Shown: positions 27,889-63,224, numbered from the stretch's first letter. The stretch is DNA of 64,000 bases from Candidatus Methanomethylicia archaeon (GCA_038727515.1 JAVYVS010000002.1:243699-307698); one strand, 5' to 3'. Translations and numbers: made by a program. The notes: generated by a model from the sequence alone, not told the origin.

Positions 27889-27890
27889 AA

Positions 27891-31263: not shown

Positions 31264-31264
31264 A

Positions 31265-35319: not shown

Positions 35320-35351
35320 CCATGAATAACATTTCTACTATATAAAAGGAT

Positions 35352-36284: not shown

Positions 36285-36291
36285 GTATGTT

Positions 36292-43054: not shown

Positions 43055-43058
43055 ATGT

Positions 43059-43712: not shown

Positions 43713-43714
43713 AT

Positions 43715-46970: not shown

Positions 46971-49361
46971 ATGGTTGATAGTGTTAGAATAGGCGTTTAT
47001 GTTTGTCATTGTGGTGGGAATATCTCTAATGTTGTTAATATAAGTGAGGTTATAAATGCAATAAGGAATGTTGAAGGTGTTGTAATTGTTAGGGATAATG
47101 AACATGTATGTTCTGAAGCTGGTCAAAGGGAGATTCAAGAAGATATAAAGAGGCTTAATTTAAATAGAGTTGTCATTGCTGCTTGTTCCCCAAAGTTTCA
47201 TGGCCCCACATTTATGAAACTTATTGAAGAATCTGGTTTAAATCCATATCTCTTTGAAATGGTTAATATTAGGGAGCAGGATTCTTGGGTTCATTCCAAT
47301 GATCCTAAGGGTGCTACGATTAAAGCTATTGACCAGATAATGGCTGCAATTGCTAAAGTCAAATTTAATGAGCCTTTACAGCCTAAGGAGGTTAAGATTG
47401 GTAATAGGGTTTTAGTTATTGGTGGTGGTATTTCTGGTATTCAGACTGCTCTAGATCTAGCTGATTCAGGTTGTAAAGTTTACTTGGTTGAAAGGGAGCC
47501 GATGATTGGTGGTAGAATGGCTCAATTAAGTTATACATTTCCAACAGATGATTGTTCTTTATGTATTTTATCGCCGAAGATGGCTGCCGTATATAATCAT
47601 CCAAATATAACATTGTTAACTTATAGTGAAGTTGAAGATGTTAGTGGTAGTGTAGGTGATTTTCATGTTAAAGTTAAAGTTAAACCTAGATATGTTGATA
47701 TGGATAAGTGTGTAGCTTGTGGAATTTGTGCATCTAAGTGTCCAGCATCTGCTCCAGATGAATTTAATTATGGTCTTAGAACTAGAAGAGCTATTTATGT
47801 TCCACATGAGATGGCTGTTCCATACAAGTATCTCATAGATTCAAAATCTTGTTTATATTTCCTGAAGGGTATATGTAGAGTTTGTGAGAGGGTTTGTCCT
47901 CAAAAAGCTGTGAATTTTAATGATTCAGAGAGGATTTTGGATTTAGTTGTTGATGCTATTGTTGTCGCCACTGGTTATGATCCTTTTGATGCAACTAAAC
48001 TTAAACAATATGGTTATGGTGTTTACAAGAATGTTATTATAGCACCACAATTGGAGAGGATGGTTATGCCTGTAGGTCCAACTGGTGGTAAGGTCGTTAG
48101 ATTATCTGATGGTCAACTCGCCAAGAAGATTGCATTTATACATTGTGTTGGTTCTAGAGATGAACAAATTGGTAGACCTGGATGTTCTAGAGTTTGCTGT
48201 ATGTATAGTATTAAGCAGGCTATGACTCTTAAAAGGCAGGATGTAACTAGGGATGTACATTTATTTTATATTGATATTAGAGCTTATGGTAAAGGTTTTG
48301 AAGAATACTATAGTAGAGCTCAAGATTTAGGTGTTAAATTCATTAGGGGGAAGGTTAGTGAAGTTATTGAGGATCCAGTTACAAATAAGCTTATTGTTAG
48401 AGCTGAAGATACTTTGACTGGAAGGTTTATTGAAGATGAATTTGACTTAGTTGTTTTGTCTGTTGGTCTCGTCCCTTCCCATGGCTCTGAGGATTTAGCT
48501 AAAAAGTTGAAGTTGAATATTGGACCAGATGGATTCTTTTTAGAAGCTCATCCAAAGTATAGGCCTGTGGATACCCTTAGGGAGGGTGTATTTATATGTG
48601 GTTGTGCTCAGGGACCAAAGGATATTGCTGATTCAGTGGCTCAAGCTAGTGCTGCTGCTGGAAGGGTTTTAAGATTGATTAGTCAGGGTAAGATTCTTGT
48701 TGAACCTATAAAAGCTTATGTTTTAAGTGATTTATGTAATGGCTGTGGTATATGTATTGATAAATGTCCTCTTGGAGCCATAAGTATGGTTGATGGGAAA
48801 GCCATTATTAGTGATGCTTTATGCGTTGGTTGTGGGAGTTGTATTCCATACTGTCCACAAAGTGCAATTGAATTGAGGCATTACACTGAAAAACAGATTT
48901 TAAGTCAAATTGAAGCTGCCCTTAAAAGTAAGGGTGAGGGTGAAATTAGAGTTATAGCATTCTTTGATGATTCATGTACTTATAGAGCTGCAGATCTTGC
49001 TGGTACTAGTAGATTGATTTATGATGATAGAGTTAGAGTTATAAGTGTTCCTAGCGCTAGTAGACTTACACCTAGAATTATTTTAAGTGCATTTAAGTAT
49101 GGTGCTGATGGTGTTTTCATTGGAGATTGTCTTCCAGGAGCTTCACCATATCATCCAAAAGTTTTAGATGTAATTAATGATGTTATTAGGGATGTGAGAA
49201 CTCAGATGAGAAAGTTTAGGATTGATGCTAGGAGATTGAAGTTTGATACTATTGCTGTTGATATGGCTGAGAGATTAGTTAAAGATTTAGAGGATTTGAT
49301 TTCTATTATAGAGAGGTTGGGGCCTTTAAAGGTTGAGGAGAGAATTAGAATTAAGGTTTAG
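46971..49361 (+). CDS. hdrA: HdrA fused to a C-terminal MvhD-like domain
   Basis: CHCGG, GGGISG, TFPTDDCSLC, CSRVCCMYSIK; from about 48943 YRAADLAG..AFKYGADGV MvhD-like domain. Confidence 0.92.
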   Translation: MVDSVRIGVYVCHCGGNISNVVNISEVINAIRNVEGVVIVRDNEHVCSEAGQREIQEDIKRLNLNRVVIAACSPKFHGPTFMKLIEESGLNPYLFEMVNIREQDSWVHSNDPKGATIKAIDQIMAAIAKVKFNEPLQPKEVKIGNRVLVIGGGISGIQTALDLADSGCKVYLVEREPMIGGRMAQLSYTFPTDDCSLCILSPKMAAVYNHPNITLLTYSEVEDVSGSVGDFHVKVKVKPRYVDMDKCVACGICASKCPASAPDEFNYGLRTRRAIYVPHEMAVPYKYLIDSKSCLYFLKGICRVCERVCPQKAVNFNDSERILDLVVDAIVVATGYDPFDATKLKQYGYGVYKNVIIAPQLERMVMPVGPTGGKVVRLSDGQLAKKIAFIHCVGSRDEQIGRPGCSRVCCMYSIKQAMTLKRQDVTRDVHLFYIDIRAYGKGFEEYYSRAQDLGVKFIRGKVSEVIEDPVTNKLIVRAEDTLTGRFIEDEFDLVVLSVGLVPSHGSEDLAKKLKLNIGPDGFFLEAHPKYRPVDTLREGVFICGCAQGPKDIADSVAQASAAAGRVLRLISQGKILVEPIKAYVLSDLCNGCGICIDKCPLGAISMVDGKAIISDALCVGCGSCIPYCPQSAIELRHYTEKQILSQIEAALKSKGEGEIRVIAFFDDSCTYRAADLAGTSRLIYDDRVRVISVPSASRLTPRIILSAFKYGADGVFIGDCLPGASPYHPKVLDVINDVIRDVRTQMRKFRIDARRLKFDTIAVDMAERLVKDLEDLISIIERLGPLKVEERIRIKV

Positions 49362-49372: not shown

Positions 49373-49744
49373 GTGTTTAAAGGTTTAGCTCAAACAGTTT
49401 ATGAATTAAGTGGGAAGAATCCATATCTATGTTTTCAATGTGGAATTTGTAGTAGTAGTTGTCCTATGATTAAAGATATGGACATACCTCCACATCAAGT
49501 TATACGTATGATTCAATTAGATATACAAGAAGTTTTGAATTGTAAAACTATATGGGTTTGTGCATCTTGTAATACATGTACAGCTAGATGTCCAAGAGAT
49601 GTAGATCCAGCTAGAATTATAAATGTCCTTAGAACTATTATGCAGAGGAAGAATGTTTATCCATTGGATTTAAGGAAAGTTAAGGGTTTAGATGAGATTC
49701 CTCAAATAGCTTTGATTTCTGCATCTAGAAAGCTTACGGGGTGA
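49373..49744 (+). CDS. hdrC: Heterodisulfide reductase subunit C-like
   Basis: CFQCGICSSSCP, WVCASCNTCTARCP. Confidence 0.9.
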   Translation: MFKGLAQTVYELSGKNPYLCFQCGICSSSCPMIKDMDIPPHQVIRMIQLDIQEVLNCKTIWVCASCNTCTARCPRDVDPARIINVLRTIMQRKNVYPLDLRKVKGLDEIPQIALISASRKLTG

Positions 49745-49750: not shown

Positions 49751-50605
49751 TTGAAGTTTATGTATTATCCTGGTTGTTCAGTTAAAGATTATGCTAAGGT
49801 TTATGAAGAAACTGCATTATCAGTTTTAAAATTGTTCAATGTTGAACTTGTTGAACTTAATAGATGGAATTGTTGTGGCGTTGTTTATGAGCATGCTACT
49901 GATGCTATTATGCAGCACATTGCATCTCTTAGAGATCTTATAAGAGCTCAAGAATTTATGAATGATATTGGGGATAATAGACTTGTAACGCTTTGTTCAA
50001 TGTGTTATAATACTTTGAAGAAAGTTAATGAAATTGTCATAAATGATTCTGAGAAACTCAAGAATTTATGTGATTATATGGATGATGAACCAAAGTATAA
50101 TTGTGGTGTTGATGTTAAATATATTCTTGAATTGATTGTTGATGATAGTATAATAGGACTTAATAAGATCAGTAGTAACGTTAAAAGAGACCTTAAGAGT
50201 TTGAAGGTTGCACCCTTCTATGGATGTGCAATACTGAGGCCTAAAGGTATTGGAATTGATGATCCTGAGGATCCACATATATTGTCAGATTTAATATCTA
50301 GTTTAGGCGCTAAACCCATTAAATTCCCATATGAAAAGAAGTGTTGTGGTTCTTATAATGTTGTTTATGATAGAAGTATAGTTGAGAGAACCGTTAGTGA
50401 AATTGTTAAAGCTGCATCTAGGTGGGGTGCTGACATCATTATAACTACATGTCCACTTTGCCACTATAATTTAAACCTTGTTAAGAGCAAATTTAATATA
50501 CCTACAATATACTTTACTGAGTTGATGGCTTATGCCCTTGGTATTGATGATAAAATTCCACCGGAAACTCTTTTAATATTAAGAAGTAAATTTGGTGGTG
50601 GATGA
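49751..50605 (+). CDS. hdrB: Heterodisulfide reductase subunit B-like
   Basis: YPGC, NCCG, LCSMC, FYGC, KCCG, TCPLC all intact. Confidence 0.9.
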   Translation: MKFMYYPGCSVKDYAKVYEETALSVLKLFNVELVELNRWNCCGVVYEHATDAIMQHIASLRDLIRAQEFMNDIGDNRLVTLCSMCYNTLKKVNEIVINDSEKLKNLCDYMDDEPKYNCGVDVKYILELIVDDSIIGLNKISSNVKRDLKSLKVAPFYGCAILRPKGIGIDDPEDPHILSDLISSLGAKPIKFPYEKKCCGSYNVVYDRSIVERTVSEIVKAASRWGADIIITTCPLCHYNLNLVKSKFNIPTIYFTELMAYALGIDDKIPPETLLILRSKFGGG

Positions 50606-51306
50606 ATATGGTGGAAAAACTGGCGCAAAGATTTGTGAAGATATACATTATGGGTAAAGAGTATGAGGTTCCAGAGGGTATAACCATAATGAAAGCAGTT
50701 GAATATGCTGGTTACCAGTATATTAGAGGTGCTGGATGTAGAGGTGGATTTTGTGGTGCATGTGCAACAATATATAGGCTTAAGGGTGATTATAGACTTT
50801 ATACAGCTCTTGCATGTCAAACAACTGTTAAAGATGGTATGTATCTTGTTCAAATACCATTCTCCCCTGCTGAAAAAGTTAGATATAATATTGAGGAGCT
50901 AAAGCCTACTGGTTCAACTGTATTGGCTTTGTATCCTGAAATTGCTAGATGTGTTGCTTGTAATGCATGTACAAAAGCTTGTCCACAAGAATTGCAAGTT
51001 ATGGATGCTATACAGATGATTAAGAGGGGAGATTTATCGAAAGCTGCTGAATTATGTTTTGATTGTATATCATGTGGACTTTGTAGTATAAGGTGTCCAG
51101 CTGAAATAATACATTACCACGTTTTTCAATTGGTTAGGAGACTTTATGGAAAATATATTGCGCCAAAGGCTAAGCATCTTGATATTAGAGTAAAAGAGGT
51201 TATTGAAGGTAAATTTGATGAAGAATTAAATAAACTTATCAAAATGAGTCCCGCCGAACTCAAGAAATTATATGATAGTAGGGAGATTGAAAGTCCGGAG
51301 GGGTGA
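50602..51306 (+). CDS. Fumarate reductase/succinate dehydrogenase-like Fe-S subunit ([2Fe-2S] + 2x[4Fe-4S])
   Basis: GCRGGFCGAC..LACQT, CVACNACTKACP, CISCGLCSIRCP. Confidence 0.82.
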   Translation: MNMVEKLAQRFVKIYIMGKEYEVPEGITIMKAVEYAGYQYIRGAGCRGGFCGACATIYRLKGDYRLYTALACQTTVKDGMYLVQIPFSPAEKVRYNIEELKPTGSTVLALYPEIARCVACNACTKACPQELQVMDAIQMIKRGDLSKAAELCFDCISCGLCSIRCPAEIIHYHVFQLVRRLYGKYIAPKAKHLDIRVKEVIEGKFDEELNKLIKMSPAELKKLYDSREIESPEG

Positions 51307-51309: not shown

Positions 51310-52986
51310 ATGTCGCAAAAGATCGGTTATCCCGATTATATGAGGGATTTAATAAAAATTGTTGAAGAAACTAGAGATAGAAGGCTTAAGGAGAGATATA
51401 GAAGGCTTAGTCCAGATGAAAAGAATGAACTCCTTAAAACTTGGCATCCAGACTATAAAGAGGGTACTAAGAGACCTCTAAAGATTGGTCCAAGCGCGGG
51501 ATTAATGGTTCCACATGAAGTTGCCGATTTAATAGAAGCATATCCATTGGTGGAACCTAATGATATAGATTTGAGTAAAGTTGATTATGATGTAGATTTA
51601 CTTGTGATCGGTGGAGGTGGAGCTGGGACTTCAGCTGCTATATGGGCTAATATTGAGGGTATACCATCAGAAAATATACTTATAGCAACGAAACTTAGAT
51701 TTGGAGATGCAAATACGAAAATGGCTCAAGGAGGTATACAGGCTGCTGATAGACCTAATGATAGTCCAGCTATACACTTTATAGATATAATGGGTGGAGG
51801 TCAATATACAAATGATCCTGAACTTGTAATGGAGTTAGTTAAAGATGCACCCTTCATAATAAAATGGCTTGAAGATTTAGGTGTAATGTTTGATAAGGAA
51901 CCTGATGGAACTATGATTGAATTATCTGGTGGTGGCACTTCGAGGAATAGGATGCATGCAGCAAAGGATTATACTGGTCTTGAAATTATGCGTGTATTAA
52001 TGGATGAAGCATTAAATAGAGGTATAAGAGTATTGGAATTTACACCAGCCATAGAATTATTAACTGATGATTTTGGTAATAGAATTACGGGAGCAGTTCT
52101 CTGGAATATGGAAACAAAGGAGTATTATGTTGTTAGGAGTAAAGCCGTTATTTTAGCTACTGGAGGTTATGGTAGACTTCATATACAGAATTATCCAACA
52201 ACAAATCATTATGGAGCAACCATGGATGGAGTTGTATTAGCATATAGAGTTGGTGCAAAATTAAGGGATTTAGATGCAACTCAATATCATCCAACTGGAG
52301 CTGCATATCCAGATCAAATACTAGGCCTCTTAATAACTGAGAAAGTTAGATCTATGGGTGCACAACTTGTTAATATTGATGGAGAACAATTTGTTTATCC
52401 ATTGGAAACAAGAGATGCTGTTTCTGCAGCTATCATAAGGGAGTGTTATGGTAGAGATAAAGGTGTTAAAACGCCTACTGGAGTTAGAGGTGTATGGCTT
52501 GATACACCAATGGTAGATATGATTAGGGGGGAGGGTGCCACTAAGAGATATCTATCATCAGTTTATAGGATGTATGCTAGGTTTGGAATAGATGTAACAA
52601 AAGAGCCTATTCTAGTATTTCCAACATTGCATTATATGAATGGTGGTGTTTGTATAAATAAGTATGCTCAAGTTTTAGGTTGTAATGGTGTAATAGAAGG
52701 ATTCTTTGCTGCTGGTGAAACCACTGGTGGTGTTCATGGTAAGAATAGGCTTATGGGTAACTCCTTACTGGAGGTAACAGTTTATGGTAGAAGAGCTGGG
52801 ATTTCAGCTGCAAAGTATATTAAAAGTGGTGTTGGATTTGGAAAATTAACATTGAACCATGTAATACGATTCAAACAAGAACTTGAAAAGCTTGGGGTTC
52901 CTAGAAGTAGACGTTCTCCAATGCTACTACCAGAGTATAGAGGTGAAAAAGTTTTATCAAAAGCTATACCAATATTCCCAATATAA
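51310..52986 (+). CDS. Fumarate reductase-like flavoprotein (soluble, TfrA-like)
   Basis: GGGGAG, MAQGG, QYHPT, ITEKVR, TRD, HYMNGG, HGKNRLMGNSL. Confidence 0.85.
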   Translation: MSQKIGYPDYMRDLIKIVEETRDRRLKERYRRLSPDEKNELLKTWHPDYKEGTKRPLKIGPSAGLMVPHEVADLIEAYPLVEPNDIDLSKVDYDVDLLVIGGGGAGTSAAIWANIEGIPSENILIATKLRFGDANTKMAQGGIQAADRPNDSPAIHFIDIMGGGQYTNDPELVMELVKDAPFIIKWLEDLGVMFDKEPDGTMIELSGGGTSRNRMHAAKDYTGLEIMRVLMDEALNRGIRVLEFTPAIELLTDDFGNRITGAVLWNMETKEYYVVRSKAVILATGGYGRLHIQNYPTTNHYGATMDGVVLAYRVGAKLRDLDATQYHPTGAAYPDQILGLLITEKVRSMGAQLVNIDGEQFVYPLETRDAVSAAIIRECYGRDKGVKTPTGVRGVWLDTPMVDMIRGEGATKRYLSSVYRMYARFGIDVTKEPILVFPTLHYMNGGVCINKYAQVLGCNGVIEGFFAAGETTGGVHGKNRLMGNSLLEVTVYGRRAGISAAKYIKSGVGFGKLTLNHVIRFKQELEKLGVPRSRRSPMLLPEYRGEKVLSKAIPIFPI

Positions 52987-53024
52987 CCAACTTTTTATTT
53001 CATAATTAACTTTAATTTACATGG

Positions 53025-53037
53025 TAAACTATTTAAG
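53025..53037 (+). promoter_or_regulatory. Probable TATA box starting a second transcription unit at the GcvH-like gene
   Basis: TAAACTATTTAAG about 38 nt upstream of ATG 53075; a T-tract follows the upstream stop codon (52992-53000). Confidence 0.45.
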
Positions 53038-53074
53038 AAGTTGAGTATAATCTTATTTGTCGTGGTGTTGCATT

Positions 53075-53470
53075 ATGAGTGAGAAGTATATTTTGCGTGA
53101 AGGCTTCTATTATATTCCAGATCATACATGGGTTGAAGTACTTCCAGATGGAACTGTTAGAGTTGGTATAACTGATTATGCTCAAAAGATGTTGAAGACT
53201 GTTAGAAGAGTTAGATTGGAGAATGTTGGAACAGAAGTTTCACAGTATGAACCTTTTGGAGTTATTGAATCAACGAAGGCTACTAGTGATTTAATAGCTC
53301 CCGTTAGTGGAATTATAAAGCAAGTTAATGAGAGAGTTTTAAAACAACCTTCTCTTGTAAATGTAGATCCATATGGTGCCGGATGGTTAGTTATAATTCA
53401 ACCTACAAAATGGGATGAAGAAAAGGATGAACTTCTAACAGCAGAAGAATATTCTCAATACCAGCAATAG
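53075..53470 (+). CDS. gcvH: Lipoyl-carrier protein (glycine cleavage H-protein family)
   Basis: HTW, GITDYAQ, IESTKATSDL (lipoyl-Lys), VNVDPYGAGWL; ATG 53075 after GGTG. Confidence 0.9.
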   Translation: MSEKYILREGFYYIPDHTWVEVLPDGTVRVGITDYAQKMLKTVRRVRLENVGTEVSQYEPFGVIESTKATSDLIAPVSGIIKQVNERVLKQPSLVNVDPYGAGWLVIIQPTKWDEEKDELLTAEEYSQYQQ

Positions 53471-53488
53471 CATCTAGAGGCGTATACT

Positions 53489-53947
53489 TTGGGATTTGAA
53501 GAGCAAAAAGTTTTATTCTATGATGCAAAAAAATGTTCAGGATGTCTATATTGCATGGAGGTCTGTTCATATAAGCATTATGGAGTAGTGGATATTGAAA
53601 AAGCTTTTCTAATGGTTGCATTAAATCCTGAGGGGAATCCTCTTTTCATAAATAATTATTGTAGTCATTGTCAGGATCCATTTTGTATGGCTGCATGTCC
53701 AGTTGAGCCTAAAGCTATAAGTAAAGATCCCAATACTGGATTTGTGTTGATAAATCCAGCTTTATGTATTGGTTGTAGAAGCTGTAATTATGCATGTCCA
53801 ATAGCAATACCATATTTTAATGAGAAGCTTAGGGTTAGCGTTAAATGTGATGCATGTAAAGGTGAATTTCTATGCGCAAAATATTGTAGTACTGGTGCTC
53901 TTCAAGTTGTATCTAGAATTGAAGCTTTAAAGAGGTTAAAATCATGA
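53489..53947 (+). CDS. 4x[4Fe-4S] electron-transfer protein (HycB/CooF/DmsB-like)
   Basis: CSGCLYCMEVC, CSHCQDPFCMAACP, CIGCRSCNYACP, CDAC; TTG start after GAGG. Confidence 0.88.
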   Translation: MGFEEQKVLFYDAKKCSGCLYCMEVCSYKHYGVVDIEKAFLMVALNPEGNPLFINNYCSHCQDPFCMAACPVEPKAISKDPNTGFVLINPALCIGCRSCNYACPIAIPYFNEKLRVSVKCDACKGEFLCAKYCSTGALQVVSRIEALKRLKS

Positions 53948-54222
53948 GTGAGCAAGAATTAAATAAATATCCATTGAGGAAAAGTATTATTGGATTGCAA
54001 GATTCACTTAAATCTCCAATTAAGAACATCCTTAGTGTAGGTCATGTTCCAATATTCTCTAGATATATTCAGAGGGTTAGAACTAAAATCGGTTTACCAG
54101 GAGTTCCGCCAACAGCATATAGCGATAAAAATGTCGTTGCTCAAATATTAGATTTAGCAAGAGCAGTAAATGTTGAAGGTAAAATTGGATTTGACACTAA
54201 TAAGAAGAATTTCAAATATTAA
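53944..54222 (+). CDS. Cysteine-free protein resembling the C-terminal arm of methanogen HdrC
   Basis: GHVP..RTKIGLPGVPPT..IGFD resembles the HdrC tail GHAVP..R..LGL...PPT..IG(F/Y)D; lies directly before hdrB. Confidence 0.6.
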   Translation: MSEQELNKYPLRKSIIGLQDSLKSPIKNILSVGHVPIFSRYIQRVRTKIGLPGVPPTAYSDKNVVAQILDLARAVNVEGKIGFDTNKKNFKY

Positions 54223-54232
54223 TGGTGATTTT

Positions 54233-55096
54233 ATGGTTGATTATAGCTTATTTTTAGGTTGTTACATACCCGCTATGCAACCTTTTGTAGAAGCCTCCAT
54301 GAGAAGGATTAGTCAAAAGATTGGAATTAATTTAATAGACATAAATGGTGCTACATGCTGTCCTGTCCCTGAAATAACTAGACTTGTTGATGAAGAATTA
54401 TGGCTTACAGTTGCAGCTAGAAATATAGCTTTAGCTGAAAAAATAGGAAAAGATATTATGGTAATGTGTAATGGGTGTTGGGAAACACTATATGAAGTTA
54501 ATGAACATTTAATACATTCAAAGGAAATTATGGATAAAATTAATGCTAACCTCAACAGTTTTGAATTAAAATTTAACGGTATTATAAAGGTTAAGCATTA
54601 TGTTGAAGTATTATTTGAAGACGTAGGTTTAAATGTTATTAAGGAGAATGTTAAGGTTAATTTAAGTAAATTTAAATTTGCACTTCACCCTGGATGTAAA
54701 TTGTATAAAATGGTTGATGAAAAGGGTGCAAGATATCTTAAAGAGATTGTAAAAGCATTGAATGTTGAAATAGTTGATTATGGTTTAGAAAGGGTTTGTT
54801 GTGGATATCCATTAATGCTTTATTCAGTTGATAAAGCTATGAGGGAAAGAACTAAATGGAAATTGGATTCAATAAAGAATTCTGGTGCAGATGCTATAAT
54901 TGTAGCTTGTCCTGCATGCTATGATCAATTTGAGAAAACACAATTAACTTTGAAGGATGAAGGTATTGAATATGGGATTCCAGTGCTTCATTTAAGTGAG
55001 TTAATTGCTTTAAGCTTTGGTATTCCACCCAGAGATGTTGGTTTAGATTCCCATGGTATTTCAACTGATAAAATAATTAGTGGATTGGTGAGTTAA
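54233..55096 (+). CDS. hdrB: Heterodisulfide reductase subunit B (methanogen-like N-terminal motifs)
   Basis: FLGC, GATCCPVP, AARNIALAE, CNGC, HPGC, VCCG, ACPAC; ATG 54233 after GGTGA. Confidence 0.9.
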   Translation: MVDYSLFLGCYIPAMQPFVEASMRRISQKIGINLIDINGATCCPVPEITRLVDEELWLTVAARNIALAEKIGKDIMVMCNGCWETLYEVNEHLIHSKEIMDKINANLNSFELKFNGIIKVKHYVEVLFEDVGLNVIKENVKVNLSKFKFALHPGCKLYKMVDEKGARYLKEIVKALNVEIVDYGLERVCCGYPLMLYSVDKAMRERTKWKLDSIKNSGADAIIVACPACYDQFEKTQLTLKDEGIEYGIPVLHLSELIALSFGIPPRDVGLDSHGISTDKIISGLVS

Positions 55097-55097
55097 T

Positions 55098-55559
55098 ATG
55101 GGTATAAAACAAAAGATGTTTAAATATGCTCCATGGATATATCATCTTCATGCTGGTGGATGTAATGGATGTGACATTGAACTTGTAGCTGCACTTACAC
55201 CTAGATTTGACGTTGAACGTTTTGGTATTAAACTAGTTTCTTCCCCTAGATATGCAGATTTATTAATTGTTACAGGACCTGTTACAAAACATATTGCACC
55301 ATTTATGAAGAGAGTTTATATACAGGTTCCAAATTCAAAAGTTGTTATTGCTCTTGGAGCTTGTGCTTGCTCTGGTGGTATATTCAATGATGTGGATGGC
55401 GAAGAAACTTATGCTATTATCGGTGGAACTGATAAGATAATACCGGTGGATGTTTATGTTCCTGGATGTCCGCCTAAACCTGAAGCTATAATTAATGGTG
55501 TTATTAAGGCCATTGAAATATTAAGTAATAAGTGTAGAGGTGGGAAAATTGAAAATTAA
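55098..55559 (+). CDS. Group 4 [NiFe] hydrogenase small subunit (NuoB-like)
   Basis: GCNGCDIE, GACACSGG, VPGCPP. Confidence 0.92.
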   Translation: MGIKQKMFKYAPWIYHLHAGGCNGCDIELVAALTPRFDVERFGIKLVSSPRYADLLIVTGPVTKHIAPFMKRVYIQVPNSKVVIALGACACSGGIFNDVDGEETYAIIGGTDKIIPVDVYVPGCPPKPEAIINGVIKAIEILSNKCRGGKIEN

Positions 55560-55842
55560 ATATAGTTATATGCCAATTATAATATCAATATTACTAATAA
55601 CTTTTTGTTTCTGGATGATACCATTTATATCAAATTTTATCCTACTAGTATTTCTTGTTGAAGTAGCTTCAGCAGCAACATTTTATTTAACATTTATAGT
55701 TTTAACCCTTTGGAGTCAATCTCATAGTATTGATTTAGAATCAATATTTATGTGTGGACTTGCAAAACCCCCATACATTTCATTAGATGAAATATACCTT
55801 TATAATATACCATTTATGGAGGTTGAAAGAGGTGAACATTGA
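55549..55842 (+). CDS. Small membrane subunit of the hydrogenase complex
   Basis: Two TM segments then FMCG; overlaps both neighbours; TTG 55549 after GAGGTG. Confidence 0.65.
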   Translation: MKIKYSYMPIIISILLITFCFWMIPFISNFILLVFLVEVASAATFYLTFIVLTLWSQSHSIDLESIFMCGLAKPPYISLDEIYLYNIPFMEVERGEH

Positions 55843-57295
55843 TTTTACATTAATTTTTGCACTACTATTTTCATCATCAACACCATTTCTCTCATCAAAT
55901 CTTAAAACAGCATTTAAAACGTCAATTTTCATCATGATTACAGCATTGCTCATTAATACATATACATTGTTTAAAGTCTTTATTAATGGGGTATCCTTTA
56001 CACCATTACAAGAATTTAGTTATATGCTAAGTTTAATTATGAGCGAGATTATATTAATAATTGCTTTAGCTTCCATCATATTTTCAAATAGTTATTTCAA
56101 TTTTAGTGAGATCGTTAGAGGTAGGATATACTTTGGGTTAATACCAATACTTTCAGCTACTTTAATTGGGTTATCAATGTTTAACAATATTATTTCAATG
56201 CTATTCTTTCTTGAAGCATCTACGTTTATAAGTGCCATACTTGTGCTTTATGGTGAGCGTAGAGATAAAGCTGTTTTTTCAACCATGGTTTATTTAGTTA
56301 TGTCCATTATTGAATCAATTTTAATTTTATCTGGTATATACTTTTTAACTAGAGGATATGGTTTAAATTTAGCTTTAACCGATATTAACGAATTAAGCAA
56401 GTATGCCATTATTAGCAAATATGATGTGGAATTGGCTTCTTATTGTATTCTTTTGGGTTTTGGTATTAAGGCTGGTGCTTCTCCCATTGCTTTGTTATGG
56501 TTGCCATTGGTTCATTCTGAAGCTCCATCACCAATTAGCGCACTTTTATCAGGAGTTATAATTGAATCCGCATACATACCAATGTTGAAATACACATATG
56601 CACTCATACCACAAATATCAATAAACATTGGCGGCTTTATAGCTTTTTCAGGTTTAATTAATGTTTTGATAGGTGCTATTGGGATGATTTTAGATAGGGA
56701 TTTAAAGAGGATTTTAGCTTTTAGTAGTATTTCTAGTATGGGCGGTCTTGGTATGGCTTTGGGTCTTGGTATGATTATGAATATACATGAAGCTTACATG
56801 TGTTTGTTAGGGTCTATTTTATATTTATTTGCTCATTCATTTTCTAAAGCCCTTCTCTTCTTATGTGCTGGCATTCTCATAAAAACTTCTCATGAGAGGA
56901 ACTGGTTTAAGATGTCTCAAAAAGTTAGATTTCCACCTATAACTTCAATCATGTGGATTATTGGTGCAATAAGTATTTCTGGCCTATTCCCATTTACTTC
57001 AGGTTACTATGGGAAACATATAATTATGGAATCCATAAATACCATAGAATCAAGTGTTTTCAATATTTCTAAAGATGTTTATTCATTTGCATTATATTTT
57101 GCTGGTATAGTGATATTTTGTGTTTTAATGGTTTTCATTATTTTCTCATTTAAGGGTTCTGAGAAATCTAAAGAACGTTTTGATTTAATGTTCTTATCAT
57201 CTTTTATTTTGATGCTTATATCATTTACACTTGGAATATTGTATAGTTATGTTTACTTACATGATTTACTCCATCAATTATTTTTAGGTGGTTAA
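55832..57295 (+). CDS. MrpD/NuoM-like ion-translocating membrane subunit
   Basis: FLE, GFGIKAG, WLPLVHSEAPSPISALLSG, DLKRILAFSS, HSFSKALLF; GTG 55832 after GGAGG. Confidence 0.9.
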   Translation: MNIDFTLIFALLFSSSTPFLSSNLKTAFKTSIFIMITALLINTYTLFKVFINGVSFTPLQEFSYMLSLIMSEIILIIALASIIFSNSYFNFSEIVRGRIYFGLIPILSATLIGLSMFNNIISMLFFLEASTFISAILVLYGERRDKAVFSTMVYLVMSIIESILILSGIYFLTRGYGLNLALTDINELSKYAIISKYDVELASYCILLGFGIKAGASPIALLWLPLVHSEAPSPISALLSGVIIESAYIPMLKYTYALIPQISINIGGFIAFSGLINVLIGAIGMILDRDLKRILAFSSISSMGGLGMALGLGMIMNIHEAYMCLLGSILYLFAHSFSKALLFLCAGILIKTSHERNWFKMSQKVRFPPITSIMWIIGAISISGLFPFTSGYYGKHIIMESINTIESSVFNISKDVYSFALYFAGIVIFCVLMVFIIFSFKGSEKSKERFDLMFLSSFILMLISFTLGILYSYVYLHDLLHQLFLGG

Positions 57296-57297
57296 TC

Positions 57298-58929
57298 ATG
57301 AATAGCTTTGATAATGTCTTAAACGATCTTAAAAGGGTTATTTATCCTAATTTTGAAATTACTGGTTATGGTTATAATGGGAGGCATATTTATATTAAGA
57401 CTAAGCTGGAAAATATGCTTGATGCTGCAAAATTCTTAATTTCTATTGGGTCTAGAGTTGTACATGTTACAGCTTCTGATATGGGTTTAAATGGCATTAA
57501 AATAATACATATTTATAGCCTTGAACACTTAGAACGTTATGCACATATAATATTATATGCTTATGCTGAAAGGGATTCACCTAAGGCTCCATCTATTGCA
57601 CAACTTACATATCAAGCTTGTTGGGCTGAAAGAGAATGTATGGAACTTCTTGGTGTTGAATTTGAAGGGCATCCAGATCCTAGACATATATTTCTACCTT
57701 TTGAATGGCCTAATCCAGTTGAAAGTTCTAGTGAAAGTAAAACTAAAATTAAGAATGTTGTTTTACCTATAGGTCCATATCATCCAGCTATGCTTGAAGG
57801 CGGCTTTTTCAAATTAATGGTGGATGGAGAAGAAGTATTAGATGTGGATATTAAGGTTGGTTTGAATCATAGAGGGGTAATGAAACTTGCTGAAAATAGA
57901 ACGTTCTGGAGGGATATTTTCCTCGTTGGTAGAATTTGTGGTATCTGTAGTGTTCCTCATCAGCTTGCTTATGTTAATGCTGTTGAAAATATTCTTGGGA
58001 TACAAATTCCTGAAAGAGCTGAGTATATTAGGGTTTTAATGGCTGAATTAAATAGGATTCATAGTCATCTATTATGGCTTGGTGTAGCTGGAGACCTAAT
58101 TGGTTTCAAGACTTTGCTCATGTGGGCTTGGAAGATTAGGGAATTAGTGCAAGATTGTATTGAAATCTTATCTGGAAATAGAGTTCACGCTGATTCTATG
58201 ATTATTGGAGGAGTTAGATTTGATGTTTCAGAAGAACAACTTAAAAAGGTTGAAGATAAATTACTTGAAGTTAGAAGAGATTTCAATAATCTTTCTGACA
58301 GCGTTGCATCACATAGTATTGTTAGGAAGAGGACTGAGGGTATAGGTATTTTATCATTAAATGATGCTAAAGAGGCTGGAGTTGTAGGTCCGACGGCTAG
58401 AGCTAGTGGATGGAAAATTGATGTTAGAAAGGATAGTCCATATTCATTTTATGGTGATCCACATTTAAGTTGGGATGTAATTGTTGATGATGGTAAAGAT
58501 GTTCTCTCAAGAGTCATTGTTAGAGTTAAGGAAGTTTTTGTTTCAATAGATTTATGTTTACAGTGTATTGATAGATTGAAGAATATTCATGGACCTATAA
58601 TCAATCCTGATATTAGAGCTTTTCCAAGTGGTGAATGTTTAAGTAAGGTTGAAGCTCCTAGAGGTGAGCTCATATACTATGTTGTATCAAATGGATCTAA
58701 CATACCTCATACCGTTAGAATTAGAACTCCAAGTTATCGTAATATTGCTGCATTAAAGTTTATGCTTAAAGGATGTAAACTTGCTGATGCTCCAATAATT
58801 ATTGGCAGCGTAGATCCATGTTTCTCTTGTACTGATCGTGTAATGATTGTTGATGATAAGAAGGGTAAAAAATGGATTTTAAGTGGCGATGAATTTAAAA
58901 ATCTTTCATTTAAAAAACTTGAGTGGTGA
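57298..58929 (+). CDS. Group 4 [NiFe] hydrogenase large subunit with fused NuoC-like domain
   Basis: WAERE..GHPDPR (NuoC-like), GPYHP, RICGIC (L1), DPCFSCTDR (L2) with a C-terminal extension. Confidence 0.93.
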   Translation: MNSFDNVLNDLKRVIYPNFEITGYGYNGRHIYIKTKLENMLDAAKFLISIGSRVVHVTASDMGLNGIKIIHIYSLEHLERYAHIILYAYAERDSPKAPSIAQLTYQACWAERECMELLGVEFEGHPDPRHIFLPFEWPNPVESSSESKTKIKNVVLPIGPYHPAMLEGGFFKLMVDGEEVLDVDIKVGLNHRGVMKLAENRTFWRDIFLVGRICGICSVPHQLAYVNAVENILGIQIPERAEYIRVLMAELNRIHSHLLWLGVAGDLIGFKTLLMWAWKIRELVQDCIEILSGNRVHADSMIIGGVRFDVSEEQLKKVEDKLLEVRRDFNNLSDSVASHSIVRKRTEGIGILSLNDAKEAGVVGPTARASGWKIDVRKDSPYSFYGDPHLSWDVIVDDGKDVLSRVIVRVKEVFVSIDLCLQCIDRLKNIHGPIINPDIRAFPSGECLSKVEAPRGELIYYVVSNGSNIPHTVRIRTPSYRNIAALKFMLKGCKLADAPIIIGSVDPCFSCTDRVMIVDDKKGKKWILSGDEFKNLSFKKLEW

Positions 58930-59930
58930 GTAAAATGCATGTGCTTGAACTCGTATTAATTCCCTTGTTATGTTTTATCCTTGGAATATTATTAAATTAT
59001 GAGGTTAGGAAGGTTTACGCTAGAAGTCAATATAGGCTTGGTCCATTACTTTCAATGTATGGAGGGTTAAGAAGTATATATGGTTCCACTAGAATTCTAC
59101 AGCCATTATATGATGTTTTAAAATTATTCTTTAAAGAGACAATTATTCCTAAAAGTGCGCGAAAATGGGTTTTTATTCTCTCTCCATTAATAAGTTTCAT
59201 TTTAGCATTATTAACTTCATACTTCATATCCTATGGCGGTTTAAGTTTACTTTCAAGTAATAGTTTTAGTATAATCTTTATTACATATCTCTTTATTGGT
59301 ATCTCATTTTTTTGGGTTTTTGGTGGATTAGCTTCCTCCTCCTCCTGGAGTATTGTTGGTTCTAGAAGGGAGGCTGAATTATTGCTTTCCATTGAAGTTG
59401 CACTACTTTCATCAATATTTTCATCAGCTATTATTTCAAATTCCCTATCAATTGACGGTATAATTAATTTTCAATTACTTTCATATCCAATGATTTTACT
59501 TAATCCATTTGCAGCTATTGTCTTCATAATAGCAATTCTTGGTAAACTACATTTTAATCCATTTGAAATTCCTGAAGCCGATGTAGAAATAGTTTCAGGG
59601 CCTTATACTGAGTATTCTGGTAAACTCTTGGCGTTAATATTATCTTCGAGATATATTTTGACAACCACCCTTGTGGGTTTATTTGTGAATTTATTCCTAT
59701 GTGGTGGAATTATTCTAAACCCAATAAACATCTATAATCAATCAATAAACATCATCATATTTGTTGTGGAGTGTTTCATTGTAATGTTCATAATATCCTT
59801 AATACATTCAATTGCACCTAGATTTAGAATTGATCAAGCTTTATCCTGGTCAATAAAGTATTTATGGCCTTTATCCGCTTGGTCAATAATATTTTCATTA
59901 ATTATAAAATCTATTCTGGGGGGAAGTTAA
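58923..59930 (+). CDS. NuoH/HycD-like membrane anchor subunit
   Basis: RKVYAR..R.GP, QPLYDVLKL, PFEIPEA..EIVSGPYTEYSG, PRFRIDQ; alternative ATG 58935. Confidence 0.9.
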   Translation: MVSKMHVLELVLIPLLCFILGILLNYEVRKVYARSQYRLGPLLSMYGGLRSIYGSTRILQPLYDVLKLFFKETIIPKSARKWVFILSPLISFILALLTSYFISYGGLSLLSSNSFSIIFITYLFIGISFFWVFGGLASSSSWSIVGSRREAELLLSIEVALLSSIFSSAIISNSLSIDGIINFQLLSYPMILLNPFAAIVFIIAILGKLHFNPFEIPEADVEIVSGPYTEYSGKLLALILSSRYILTTTLVGLFVNLFLCGGIILNPINIYNQSINIIIFVVECFIVMFIISLIHSIAPRFRIDQALSWSIKYLWPLSAWSIIFSLIIKSILGGS

Positions 59931-60497
59931 ATGTTTAAATCACTTAAAAGAGCTCTTGAAGCTTTAGGTAAACCATACACCATTAAGTATCCAGCTGGCA
60001 TTGGTATGGAGAAGTACAGTAATCTTCCTGAAACATTGCGAGGTATACCTGAGTTCAAACATGATAGATGCATTGGTTGTAGTGCTTGTGTTAGTCAATG
60101 TAGTAGTGGTGCTTTAACTATGATTGATATTGAAAATATTCGAAGGTTAAGTGTTAACCTTAATAAATGTGTTTTTTGTAGGCGTTGCGCCGATGTATGT
60201 CCTGAAGATGCATTGAAGCTTACAAGTAAATTTGAATTAGCTTCAAGTATTAAATCAGAACTTATGGTTTCAAATGATGTTGAACTCATTAAATGTGTTA
60301 ATTGCGGTGGATATTTTGCTCCTGGAAGACAATTGAAACGTATTGCTGAAAGATTGGAGAAAAATCTTACTGAAGTTAAAGCAATTGAATATCTTCATGA
60401 GGATCTACAAAAATATCTATATTTATGTTGCAATTGTAGGAAGAGTTTAAGTTTAAAATTGAATATACATACTAGAAAGCATGTGTTATTAAAATGA
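59931..60497 (+). CDS. NuoI/HycF-like Fe-S subunit
   Basis: TIKYP, RG.P, CIGCSACVSQC, CVFCRRCADVCP, extra CVNC..CCNC. Confidence 0.9.
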   Translation: MFKSLKRALEALGKPYTIKYPAGIGMEKYSNLPETLRGIPEFKHDRCIGCSACVSQCSSGALTMIDIENIRRLSVNLNKCVFCRRCADVCPEDALKLTSKFELASSIKSELMVSNDVELIKCVNCGGYFAPGRQLKRIAERLEKNLTEVKAIEYLHEDLQKYLYLCCNCRKSLSLKLNIHTRKHVLLK

Positions 60498-60838
60498 GCT
60501 TAATCTGCAGTATGATATCATTAATTTTCTTTCAGAATTTTCTAAAGGTGATAGCCCAATTTTCAGTATCAATGATAACCCTATACTTTTCCTCTAGACT
60601 TTTAGGATTGAAGAAATGGATTTCAATACTTACATCCTCCATTATATTTACATTCATCAATTTGCTTATTACCTATATTTTTGAAATAAATTTTTGGTTG
60701 AAATTAATACTCCTCTTAATCATTTTAAAATTTACTTACAACATTAGTTGGTCTAGATCCTTTTTTCTATTGTTAATCTTATGTTTTCTCTCGAATATCA
60801 TTAGATTTATCATTCCCATATTGCCATCCCCTATTTAA
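60494..60838 (+). CDS. Hypothetical membrane protein
   Basis: Highly hydrophobic 114 aa; ATGA overlap with the upstream gene. Confidence 0.55.
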   Translation: MSLICSMISLIFFQNFLKVIAQFSVSMITLYFSSRLLGLKKWISILTSSIIFTFINLLITYIFEINFWLKLILLLIILKFTYNISWSRSFFLLLILCFLSNIIRFIIPILPSPI

Positions 60839-60894
60839 ATCATATGTTTAGAAAGCTTTTTGAATTATATAACCATAACCTATCTCTGATCATT

Positions 60895-61902
60895 ATGTCT
60901 GAAGATTTGAATAAGATTATTGAGGAATTGAAGGAGATGAATGAATCTTTAATGCATATGCTTCTTATGCTTGAGAAGCGCGTTGATGATGTATTATGGT
61001 ATCATAAAGTTGGAGATTTAGCTCGTGTAATTAAGGTTAGGATTGTAGGGCCGCCTCCAAGTAAAGTTTCAAAGCCTAATGCCCCTGGAGCTAGGAATCC
61101 CCTAGTTTTTTGGAGTTATGTCTTTATTCCAAGGAATATTGATCGAAATGTTAAGTATCCTTTGATAGTTCTTCCTCATGGTGGCGTTCATGCAAACATG
61201 AGTAGTGCGTCAGCAAATGTAGTTAGAGAGCTCATAGCTCAAGGTTATATTATTATAGCTCCAGAGTATCGTGGAAGTACTGGTTATGGGAAAGCCTTTT
61301 ATGAATTAATTGATTATGGTGGATTAGAAATTGAAGATACACATGCAGCTAGGAATTGGATGGTGGAAAATTGTAGGTATGTTGATTCAAAGAGGATTGG
61401 TATTGTGGGTTGGAGTCATGGAGGTCTACATGCTTTAATGAATATATTCTTCTATCCAGATGATTATCAAGTGGCATATGCTGGAGTTCCAGTTAGCGAT
61501 TTAATTATGCGTATGGGTTATAAAGGGCAGCATTACAGGGACTTGTTTATTGCAAATTATCATATTGGTGTTGATGTATGTGATAATGTTGAAGAGTATA
61601 GACGTAGATCTCCTGTAAATTATGTTGATAAACTTAAGACTCCATTGTTAATTCATACTACAACTAATGATGAAGATGTAAATTATCTTGAAGTATTAAA
61701 TTTGATAAATGCTTTAAAAGCTGCTGGTAAAAATTTTGAATATAAAATATTTAAAGAAGCTCCAGGCGGTCATGTATTCGGTAGAATTGATACTTTACTT
61801 TCAAGGGAAGTTAGAGCTGAAGTCTATAGTTTTATAGCGAAATATCTTAATCCCCCTAATCCATTGACTTCAGCTGATGAACTTAATCCATTTGAAATAT
61901 AA
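60895..61902 (+). CDS. S9 family serine peptidase/hydrolase (catalytic domain without beta-propeller)
   Basis: HGG, YRGSTGYG, GWSHGG, DEDV, GGH. Confidence 0.88.
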   Translation: MSEDLNKIIEELKEMNESLMHMLLMLEKRVDDVLWYHKVGDLARVIKVRIVGPPPSKVSKPNAPGARNPLVFWSYVFIPRNIDRNVKYPLIVLPHGGVHANMSSASANVVRELIAQGYIIIAPEYRGSTGYGKAFYELIDYGGLEIEDTHAARNWMVENCRYVDSKRIGIVGWSHGGLHALMNIFFYPDDYQVAYAGVPVSDLIMRMGYKGQHYRDLFIANYHIGVDVCDNVEEYRRRSPVNYVDKLKTPLLIHTTTNDEDVNYLEVLNLINALKAAGKNFEYKIFKEAPGGHVFGRIDTLLSREVRAEVYSFIAKYLNPPNPLTSADELNPFEI

Positions 61903-61957
61903 GACTACTCAAAATACTTATTTCTTTATTTTATTAACCCTTTTTGTGGGGATATCT

Positions 61958-62236
61958 TTGAAATTTAAAGGGAGTTATAAAGCTGCAAAATTAATTAAAG
62001 TTTCTATGGAGGTTAAAGATGGAGTCATTGTAAGTATTAGGATTACTGGGGATTTCTTTATGTATCCAGAGGAAGCAATTAGAGATTTGGAAAGTGCATT
62101 AATAGGCGCTAATCTAAACGCAATGGATTTAGAGGCTAGGATATCAAAATTCTTATTGGAGAGGAAAATTGAATTTCCAATGATCTCCGTAATGGATCTA
62201 GTTAATGCTATACTTTCAGCTAAACCTGAAGGTTAG
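61958..62236 (+). CDS. Lipoate-protein ligase accessory (LplB-like C-terminal) domain
   Basis: KLIKV, IRITGDFFMYPEE..LE..L.G; TTG 61958 after GGGGA. Confidence 0.85.
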   Translation: MKFKGSYKAAKLIKVSMEVKDGVIVSIRITGDFFMYPEEAIRDLESALIGANLNAMDLEARISKFLLERKIEFPMISVMDLVNAILSAKPEG

Positions 62237-62249
62237 AGGTAGATACTTA

Positions 62250-63224
62250 TTGGTGGATTACATTAGAGTTTCCATAGGTACTGCATCTAAACTTGGTTTA
62301 TTGAGGGTTAAAATGTTAGCTGAACCTACAACTGCATATCTAATGTTATTTAGTGAAGGAAGATGTTATGGTAATTGTGCATTTTGCACACAATCCATAA
62401 GTAGTACATCGAACACTGAATATCTATCTAGGGTAACCTGGCCTAAATTTAAATTTAATGATGTTAAAGAAGCCTTTAAATCTGTTAGCAATTTTAAACG
62501 TATATGTATTCAAACCTTAATATATCCGAGATATCTTGAAGACACTCTTAATATAATCTCAAAATTTAAGGAGTTTCTGAATATACCGATTTCTGTTTCA
62601 ATACATCCTCAAAGCTCTAACGATCTTCAACTCTTAAAAGATTATAGTGTGGATAGAGTGGGAATAGGTGTTGATGCAGCCTCTGAACAAATTTTCAATA
62701 AAGTTAAAAGACCTTTTTCTTGGAATAAAACCATTAATTTAGTTTTTAAAGCGAGAGAAATCTTCGGTCCAAAAAGAGTTTCCGTACATTTAATTTATGG
62801 TTTAGGAGATTCCGATCGTAGTTTTATAGAAATGATGTGTAAACTTTATAATAATGATATCAATGTTGGTTTATTCGCTTTTACACCTATGGAAGGAACT
62901 TTAATGGATAAATATGAAAAACCAGAATTATCTTCTTATAGGGCAATTCAATTATCGCACTATCTAATAAAACATGGCTTAGCAAAATTTGAAGATTTCA
63001 TCTTTGATTCTCAAGGTAAACTTAAAATGATTCTAATAGACAAAGACCAGTTGATTAATGTTATTGAAAGTTGTGAACCATTTAAAACTAGTGGATGCCC
63101 AGATTGTAATAGACCTTTTTACAATGAATCTCCAGGGGGAGAATTATACAATTATCCAACATTGGAAATGGCTTTAAAGGATCTAAGTAAGATAAAAGCG
63201 GAATTGAAATATCTCTTAGGTTAA
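62250..63224 (+). CDS. lipS2: Radical SAM protein, archaeal lipoyl synthase component LipS2
   Basis: CYGNCAFC radical SAM motif plus TSGCPDCNRP, matching the TxGCPxC(N/D)RP LipS2 signature; TTG 62250 after GAGGT. Confidence 0.82.
   Translation: MVDYIRVSIGTASKLGLLRVKMLAEPTTAYLMLFSEGRCYGNCAFCTQSISSTSNTEYLSRVTWPKFKFNDVKEAFKSVSNFKRICIQTLIYPRYLEDTLNIISKFKEFLNIPISVSIHPQSSNDLQLLKDYSVDRVGIGVDAASEQIFNKVKRPFSWNKTINLVFKAREIFGPKRVSVHLIYGLGDSDRSFIEMMCKLYNNDINVGLFAFTPMEGTLMDKYEKPELSSYRAIQLSHYLIKHGLAKFEDFIFDSQGKLKMILIDKDQLINVIESCEPFKTSGCPDCNRPFYNESPGGELYNYPTLEMALKDLSKIKAELKYLLG

Follow-up and report, generated by a model that had tools for sequence, protein, structure and literature searches.

The Ehe complex was described and named in Culexarchaeia, whose habitat is sulfidic hot springs, by Kohtz et al. 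(2022, ISME Commun 2:86; PMC9723716). Those authors reported Ehe to be co-located with GcvH, SdhA, 'CdhA' and HdrA2B2C2, suggested GcvH as the protein that offers HdrB its disulfide, found biosynthesis of coenzymes M and B (CoM and CoB) to be incomplete in Culexarchaeia, and gave no transcript or biochemical data on Ehe. Here we analyzed a hydrogenase operon headed by a gcvH gene at positions 53,075-60,838 of a 64,000-nucleotide stretch of archaeal DNA (the window; G000:C2:243699-307698, which reaches the end of contig C2). The genome (1.59 Mb, ~33% G+C, 93.6% complete) is that of a member of the Culexarchaeia, and the cluster is the one that Kohtz et al. called Ehe. Its hydrogenase large subunit is closest to those of Ca. 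Culexarchaeum nevadense (76% identity) and Culexmicrobium (64-67%) over the full length, the assignment being based on these identities. HdrB- and HdrC-like genes and an antiporter subunit lie within the hydrogenase cluster, and GcvH, SdhA, 'CdhA' and HdrA2B2C2 adjoin it, as they do at three related loci (L008, L010 and L036). The original prediction for this DNA, made from the sequence alone, had used the name 'Ehd'. Hydrogenase-HdrBC clusters are indeed known from Methanomethylicia, but that name belongs to their GcvH-less version.

Both the cluster and the hypothesis were thus already in the literature, although we found no paper besides Kohtz et al. that brings GcvH, HdrB and a hydrogenase together in such a way; the original view that the enzyme is uncharacterized holds for its biochemistry, the idea itself having been published in 2022 (PMC9723716). 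The value of this window lies in corroboration: GcvH paralogy, a link to lipoate assembly genes, recurrence in several gene orders and the finding that the linkage and Mcr exclude each other. The analysis also corrects how two genes were labeled in print, namely 'HdrC', which is split, and 'CdhA'. To the published Ehe we would add that 'HdrC' is two genes (a HycB-type four-cluster ferredoxin and a separate HdrC tail), that LplB-LipS2 belong to the conserved neighborhood, and that GcvH is a distinct paralog.

We favor, with a probability of roughly 0.55, the reading that the lipoyl arm of the co-encoded GcvH paralog is the disulfide/dithiol turned over by HdrB within an ion-translocating hydrogenase, as a bound substitute for CoM-S-S-CoB, a heterodisulfide. 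The same substrate had been proposed in the original prediction; comparative evidence supports it. Gene content, cofactor ligands, paralogy, synteny and distribution, on which this reading draws, were observed directly. The operon comprises eleven co-directional genes with spacings of -56 to +18 nt, agreeing gene for gene with the order and the gaps of 18 nt or less first proposed. The genes and the preceding spacer are as follows.

52987-53074, plus strand: 88-nt spacer; T5 run just past the upstream stop codon, TATAAT at -29 to -24 from the gcvH ATG
53075-53470, plus strand: GcvH paralog, 131 aa (GCV_H 5e-36; ATG start; lipoyl motif ESTKATSD; no Cys; isoelectric point (pI) 4.8)
53489-53947, plus strand: HycB/HybA-type 4x[4Fe-4S] ferredoxin (Fer4_11 5e-17; four Cys motifs)
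53944-54222, plus strand: free-standing HdrC C-terminal tail, 92 aa, no Cys (profile match to HdrC chains)
54233 (probable start)-55096, plus strand: HdrB with two CCG domains and two non-cubane [4Fe-4S] sites (CCG 3e-27; TIGR03288 246.6 bits)
55098-55559, plus strand: [NiFe] hydrogenase small subunit, NuoB-like (Oxidored_q6 1.4e-33; four Cys visible)
55570-55842, plus strand: small membrane protein with two transmembrane segments (2-TM protein; one long hydrophobic stretch, residues ~6-58, about two helix lengths)
55787-57295, plus strand: MrpD/HyfB-like antiporter subunit (Proton_antipo_M 2.8e-37; hydrogenase 4 subunit B 149 bits)
57298-58929, plus strand: [NiFe] hydrogenase large subunit, NuoC-NuoD fusion (Complex1_49kDa, Complex1_30kDa, NiFeSe_Hases)
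58923-59930, plus strand: NuoH/HycD-like membrane subunit (NADHdh 1.7e-65)
59931-60497, plus strand: NuoI/HycF-like 2x[4Fe-4S] subunit (NF009053, formate hydrogenlyase iron-sulfur subunit, 117.7 bits)
60494-60838, plus strand: 114-aa hydrophobic open reading frame (ORF), membership uncertain (hydrophobic segments)

The spacer is compatible with an archaeal terminator followed by a putative leaderless promoter. A homolog of the 114-aa ORF was seen only in C. nevadense (L007) and not in Culexmicrobium, and the 2-TM protein, which gave no family match, has a homolog in most related clusters. The RICGIC and DPCFSC motifs given in the original prediction are present, the large subunit reading RICGICS and DPCFSCTDR, and so are the four Cys motifs of the ferredoxin and both CCG motifs of HdrB.

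The hydrogenase has the features of a group 4 membrane-bound [NiFe] enzyme, namely four Cys ligands together with NuoB-, NuoI-, NuoH- and NuoL/MrpD-like subunits. The NiFe ligands C214, C217, C508 and C511 of the large subunit are invariant in 19 sequences, and its best relatives of solved structure are E. coli HycE (7z0s_E, 2e-87) and P. furiosus MbhL (6cfw_L, 7e-76). The best-aligned solved match of the NuoI-like subunit is HycF (7z0s_F, 5e-17), two polyferredoxin chains being better by E-value. Overall, the predicted architecture is formate-hydrogenlyase-like, with HdrB at the place of FdhF. Approximately 29 residues of the large subunit lie beyond the DPCFSCTDR motif (58840-58929), which suggests that a maturation endopeptidase trims the C terminus, as happens in enzymes of the formate hydrogenlyase type. 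Two HypD genes are present in the genome, HypD being the sole hyp gene searched.

HdrB has two CCG domains with the ten Cys for two non-cubane [4Fe-4S] clusters, all ten invariant in 29 homologs, and its profile matches 5odc_B at 3e-87; its TIGR03288 score lies below the equivalog cut-off of 345 bits. The 92-aa protein downstream of the ferredoxin gave no Pfam or NCBIfam match. However, a profile of this protein and 18 homologs matched the C-terminal ~60 residues (~120-184) of HdrC (8rvu_c 5.7e-13, 5odc_C 4.5e-8) and aligned with no other part of the solved chains, so that the label 'HdrC tail' given to it earlier was right. The tail is kept in most related clusters in which the upstream gene was examined (27 loci). 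The ferredoxin matched 8c0z_C at 5e-24 and HycB (7z0s_B) at 4.6e-10. In effect, HdrC is split, its ferredoxin domain replaced by a HycB/HybA-type four-cluster protein and its HdrB-clasping tail encoded separately. A prediction of the HdrB-GcvH complex from alignments A2 and A3 scored 0.00 against a mark of 0.32, a result that weighs neither way on binding.

The operon GcvH belongs to the H-protein fold family, carries the lipoyl-lysine motif, and matches H-proteins in the PDB down to 1.8e-27. It is one of two GcvH proteins in the genome. The second adjoins GcvT on C4, a contig that also carries GcvPA/PB at a distance of 20 kb, and scored 153.1 bits on TIGR00527, compared with 112.9 bits, just below the cut-off of 115.85, for the operon copy, which is not associated with gcvT or gcvP. 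The same pair is present in four other Culexarchaeia genomes (G001-G004), i.e., in 5/5 examined. In a maximum-likelihood tree, GcvT-linked copies formed one clade (94/90) and Culexarchaeal operon copies another (100/98), and a third (99/97), with K-W after the lipoyl lysine, contained copies linked to a hydrogenase or to Hdr in Bathyarchaeia, Odinarchaeota and a Thermoprotei metagenome-assembled genome (MAG). This lysine is conserved in 31/31 GcvH sequences compared, and the operon GcvH differs locally in having a basic KTVRRVRLE where canonical copies have an acidic DIVYVELP. Carriers of the 'ESxKW' clade from Bathyarchaeia and Thermoprotei MAGs (L024, L046, L079, L094, L095) are more basic (pI 5.5-9.0) than GcvH and adjoin varied CCG/Hdr, Mrp-like and LplA/LplB genes; there are several copies per genome, with up to six GcvH hits in one Bathyarchaeal MAG.

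Based on paralogy and synteny, we rejected the operon gcvH as an ordinary glycine cleavage gene. The doubt raised with the original prediction, that gcvH might serve a normal glycine cleavage system, is answered by the separate, higher-scoring GcvH beside GcvT and by the distinct clades. The absence of gcvP, gcvT, dihydrolipoyl dehydrogenase (E3) and 2-oxoacid dehydrogenase genes from the window, also noted at the outset, was confirmed and is stronger genome-wide, as the glycine cleavage genes lie on C4 and no true E3 was found in the genome, where the sole Pyr_redox_dim protein is CoA-disulfide-reductase-like (C5:44210-45832). This last result bears on another explanation, in which Ehe replaces the missing L-protein (E3) of glycine cleavage, reoxidizing the dihydrolipoyl H-protein with release of H2, or running in reverse for glycine synthesis. 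Such a role would fit a genome with a full GcvT, GcvH and GcvPA/PB set and no bona fide dihydrolipoyl dehydrogenase found, and an operon carrier that is still close to GcvH. We nevertheless regard it as improbable, since in all five Culexarchaeia genomes the dedicated paralog stands apart from the GcvT-linked copy, related hydrogenase-linked carriers persist in three MAGs from which both GcvT and GcvP are absent, and the cluster is tied to other CCG enzymes and not to glycine cleavage genes.

The proposal that a lipoyl-GcvH is the partner of HdrB is further supported by the distribution of the linkage. An ortholog of the operon GcvH (>=73% identity) was found in 9/12 genomes of the order, the three without it being 45%, 57% and 92% complete. 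Culexmicrobium keeps the order GcvH-ferredoxin-tail-HdrB-small subunit-2-TM protein-(MrpD)-large subunit, with MrpD undetected in L010. Nor is gcvH an isolated gene, as had been considered: only 18 nt separate it from the next gene here, and in Culexmicrobium, where the HdrA2-to-SdhA cluster is divergent, it is the first gene of the operon. The synteny proposed as a check was found both within the order and in several other phyla, with GcvH paralogs next to clusters of HdrB and hydrogenase genes in Culexarchaeia, a sister family, Bathyarchaeia, Odinarchaeota and a Thermoprotei MAG, the arrangements numbering at least four. In the sister family, which belongs to the same class, the operon starts with GcvH and continues with a CoA-disulfide-reductase-like protein, a ferredoxin and MrpD, up to HdrB and the large and small subunits, and the facing divergent operon encodes a TfrB/HdrD-like CCG protein, LipS2, LplA, LplB and a lactate-type transporter. 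In Bathyarchaeia, GcvH is found right behind the small subunit and followed by GlcD-like and HdrD-like genes (L019), or divergently upstream (L020, L060), and one Bathyarchaeal genome has HdrB-like, GcvH, LplA, LplB and HdrC genes together. In Thermoprotei AUK163, GcvH and another CCG protein form a two-gene unit beside the hydrogenase. Chance would rarely place a single- or few-copy gene of 0.4 kb within a few kb of such clusters, and this was seen in at least four gene orders.

McrA was absent from our genome and from all 13 other linked genomes (0/14), and present in 6/6 Methanomethylicia Ehd genomes tested, each with a single GcvH unlinked to Ehd; as the linked and Ehd genomes are interrelated, this exclusion is to be read as a pattern and not as a statistic. 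Neither ComA nor McrA was found in our 93.6% complete genome, in which a ComB-like gene is present. CoM-S-S-CoB is therefore an unlikely substrate, which speaks against the possibility, raised with the original prediction, that HdrB reduces only that heterodisulfide.

Downstream of the operon, and overlooked in the original prediction, are co-directional genes for lipoate assembly, listed here with the hydrolase gene that precedes them:

60844-61902, plus strand: S9/dienelactone-hydrolase-type alpha/beta hydrolase, between the hydrogenase operon and LplB-LipS2 (Peptidase_S9 7e-37)
61877-62236, plus strand: LplB, lipoate-protein ligase small subunit (NF053749 71.1 bits, above the cut-off of 65)
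62205-63224, plus strand: LipS2, radical-SAM lipoyl synthase (NF053743 365 bits, above the cut-off of 270)

LplB-LipS2 come after the operon here and, among the Culexarchaeia relatives, in each of the two with a contig that extends this far (C. nevadense L007 and Culexmicrobium L008), directly after NuoI in the latter; beyond LipS2 there is one convergent gene and then the contig end. The best matches to the other two lipoylation proteins are adjacent at C1:163291-164934, an LplA-large-like protein (264 bits, cut-off 480) and a LipS1-like protein (189 bits, cut-off 230), both below their cut-offs. No E2 or other lipoyl protein beyond the two GcvH was found in the genome, where the sole other biotin/lipoyl-domain protein carries the biotin motif EAMKME. 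The whole lipoylation apparatus thus serves just this pair of GcvH proteins, with half of its genes placed behind the Ehe operon. A dedicated lipoylation machinery was rejected, as the genome holds one LplA, LplB, LipS1 and LipS2 set. The S9 hydrolase has an 84% identical copy in C. nevadense L007, is missing between NuoI and LplB in L008, and is probably not part of the system; we also considered it as a lipoamidase, for which we found no support, the gene being missing from the Culexmicrobium cluster.

The adjacent lipoate-assembly genes also suit a different explanation, in which HdrB acts on an unencoded small-molecule disulfide or polysulfide (e.g., a CoA-type disulfide or persulfide, or an unknown thiol cofactor) and GcvH is an accessory, such as a lipoate relay or store co-regulated with LplB-LipS2. 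GcvH serves as a lipoyl relay in some bacteria (reference cited by Kohtz et al., PMC9723716). Moreover, the genome's only Pyr_redox_dim enzyme is the CoA-disulfide-reductase-like flavoprotein noted above, a homolog of which separates GcvH from the ferredoxin in the cluster of the sister family. However, GcvH stays beside HdrB/CCG genes at loci with no lipoate-assembly gene nearby (e.g., L015, L018 and L019), no E2 or other lipoyl acceptor in need of a relay was found in the genome, and pairs of GcvH with a second CCG enzyme recur. We therefore consider a small-molecule substrate unlikely. The sister-family flavoprotein (L112:8508-9848, minus strand), which is CoA-disulfide-reductase/NADH-oxidase-like and of the same family as C5:44210-45832, is a candidate NAD(P)H:lipoyl-protein oxidoreductase in place of E3.

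An Hdr-like enzyme, a GcvH-like carrier and LplAB/LipS1/LipS2 genes are together the hallmark of sHdr-LbpA systems. This combination, along with the sulfidic hot-spring habitat, raises the possibility that the lipoate bears sulfane sulfur, as on an LbpA-like carrier, and that the complex is an H2:sulfane-sulfur oxidoreductase, or the reverse. Using the Cys criterion for LbpA from bioRxiv 10.64898/2026.10.01.755906, we rejected LbpA membership: the operon GcvH and its four Culexarchaeal orthologs have no Cys at all, and so lack both conserved LbpA cysteines, and they are acidic. Compared with the basic surface or pI above ~4.5 expected of LbpA, the whole-protein pI of the Culexarchaeal carriers is 4.4-5.1, with one local basic patch, the KTVRRVRLE noted above, as a change toward LbpA. 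In addition, no DsrE, TusA or rhodanese family match was obtained among the window ORFs scanned (24.9-64 kb), and HdrB strongly matches methanogen HdrB. A sulfane-sulfur carrier is thus very doubtful.

On the favored reading, the region encodes a group 4 [NiFe] hydrogenase that is formate-hydrogenlyase-like, would translocate ions, and has HdrB in place of formate dehydrogenase. The substrate, wiring order, ion coupling and direction given here are what we infer. Seven cubane clusters would conduct electrons between the NiFe site, with its H2/H+, and HdrB: the proximal one of the NuoB-like small subunit, a further two of the HycF-like subunit and the four of the HycB-like ferredoxin. In HdrB, clasped by the free-standing HdrC tail, the two non-cubane clusters would then reduce the dithiolane of lipoyl-GcvH or oxidize its dithiol form, and the membrane arm (the NuoH-like and MrpD-like subunits and the 2-TM protein) would couple this reaction to ion movement. 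The potentials of H2, lipoamide and CoM-S-S-CoB are -414 mV, ~-290 mV and ~-140 mV, respectively. From these textbook values, the H2-to-lipoyl step would yield ~24 kJ/mol, which is mildly exergonic and enough for roughly one ion. The reaction is probably reversible at hot-spring H2 levels, and easily reversed at low H2.

Several points weigh against a lipoyl substrate. The evidence for it is comparative throughout, and the gene linkage could mirror co-regulation instead of a substrate relationship. The carrier is still GcvH-like (acidic, without Cys, and close to the cut-off of the equivalog model) and could also work with GcvT/P. With a single lipoylation gene set in the genome, LplB-LipS2 are not dedicated to the operon carrier. 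A single Mcr-positive clade accounts for most of the Mcr/GcvH split, so that the genomes do not count as independent. Several of the loci labeled 'unlinked' lie on short contigs unable to show a linked gene, and the incompleteness of MAGs, including our own genome, weakens every absence claim. Similarly, when an HdrB tree was labeled 'linked' or 'unlinked', ~5 label changes were needed, a figure that gives no count of gains and losses since truncated contigs make up several of the 'unlinked' rows.

Directly upstream, on the same strand, is an operon that was overlooked in the original prediction:

46971-49361, plus strand: HdrA2-like flavoprotein, HdrA fused to an MvhD-like domain (NF040770 980 bits, E 5.5e-295)
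49373-49744, plus strand: HdrC2, 2x[4Fe-4S], short form, 123 aa (TIGR03290 1e-19; two CxxCxxCxxxCP motifs)
49751-50605, plus strand: HdrB2/SdhE-like CCG protein (CCG 2e-21; TIGR03288 119.8 bits; SdhE 114 bits)
50602-51306, plus strand: [2Fe-2S]+2x[4Fe-4S] protein, SdhB/TfrB-N-like, 234 aa, the 'CdhA' of Kohtz et al. (Fer2/Fer2_4 and Fer4)
51310-52986, plus strand: SdhA/TfrA-like FAD protein, divergent in sequence (FAD_binding_2 8.5e-67; TfrA 309.7 bits, below the cut-off of 718)

We rejected the 'CdhA' gene as a CO dehydrogenase, as its 234-aa product matches only the ferredoxin-like insert of that family (model positions 393-456 of 784); this makes a CO-oxidizing module unlikely. The 'CdhA' gene, the CCG protein and the flavoprotein jointly resemble a putative split thiol:fumarate-reductase-like unit.

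A third Hdr-type set lies at 29460-37071. On the plus strand it contains a ComB-like 2-phosphosulfolactate phosphatase (29460-30164), an unknown 140-aa ORF, an HdrC-like protein (30733-31263) and a CCG/HdrB-like protein (31256-32122); on the minus strand are LarA-like (32102-33352), HdrA-like (33352-35319), EtfA (35352-36284) and EtfB (36292-37071) genes. This set may be a lactate/Etf-linked bifurcating unit that likewise needs a disulfide partner. Lipoyl-GcvH probably also shuttles reducing equivalents to or from the upstream HdrA2-C2-B2-FeS-SdhA-like operon, and probably serves the HdrC/HdrB and EtfAB-HdrA-LarA genes at 29-37 kb as well. Elsewhere in the window, a four-gene cassette (DUF6754 and three ORFs, two of which were tested and gave no family match) is duplicated at 26420-29398 and 42245-45270, the two copies being collinear and 31-41% identical protein by protein. 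The segment 38451-42179 encodes a PxpBC-like carboxyltransferase-domain protein on the minus strand, followed by a biotinyl carrier (EAMKME) and a carboxylase subunit of PYC_OADA/HMGL-like type; the genes for BirA and PxpA lie on C1.

The Hdr-type substrate in the many archaea and bacteria without coenzymes M and B is, to our knowledge, a long-standing question. We tentatively suggest, as a possibility and not as our expectation, that in non-methanogenic archaea the GcvH paralog serves as a general currency of protein-bound dithiol/disulfide, which several enzymes of the CCG kind (HdrB/HdrD-type) charge or discharge. By way of Ehe, the paralog might close a chemiosmotic chain free of quinones and cytochromes, e.g., from H2 via lipoyl-GcvH to a Tfr-like reductase of fumarate or another acceptor, and Methanomethylicia might have swapped this carrier for CoM-S-S-CoB, or the reverse. 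If lipoyl-GcvH is indeed the partner of HdrB, a genetically encoded lipoylated carrier would provide a concrete Hdr substrate that can be made in the laboratory, Ehe would be a new kind of energy-conserving H2:protein-disulfide oxidoreductase, and the role of lipoate would extend beyond 2-oxoacid and glycine metabolism and sulfur oxidation.

Among known systems, the sHdr-LbpA-sLpl(AB)/LipS1/LipS2 systems (Cao et al. 2018, PMC6067878; Tanabe et al. 2023, PMC10332631) likewise tie a GcvH-family carrier to an Hdr-type CCG enzyme and LplAB/LipS-type genes. The present locus differs in its acidic carrier without the LbpA cysteines, its membrane hydrogenase partner, its single lipoylation set and the lack of sulfur transferases seen nearby. 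For TfrAB of Methanothermobacter, the likeness is to the upstream operon, in which the FAD subunit best matches TfrA and the [2Fe-2S]/[4Fe-4S] and CCG proteins mirror TfrB; in contrast to TfrAB, the scores are far below the family cut-offs and the TfrB-like parts are in two genes, joined to HdrA2 and HdrC2. With E. coli formate hydrogenlyase (HycBCDEFG-FdhF, 7Z0S) and the P. furiosus membrane-bound hydrogenase (6CFW), the cluster shares a modular logic, that is, a peripheral arm with NuoH-like and antiporter-like membrane subunits, whereas HdrB and the HdrC tail, instead of FdhF, end the Fe-S wire and the large subunit is NuoC-fused. Ehd of Methanomethylicia, a membrane [NiFe] hydrogenase with HdrBC and a proposed H2:CoM-S-S-CoB oxidoreductase, shares the ferredoxin, the HdrC tail (at most loci), HdrB, the 2-TM protein, the MrpD-like, NuoH and NuoI subunits, the small subunit and a homologous large subunit (~44% identity). 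It differs in having no GcvH within 10 kb in ~20 loci, the small subunit last in the gene order, and an HdrB on a long separate branch. The closest counterpart is the Ehe of Kohtz et al., with which this cluster shares the class of organism and the gene set and from which it differs in nothing essential.

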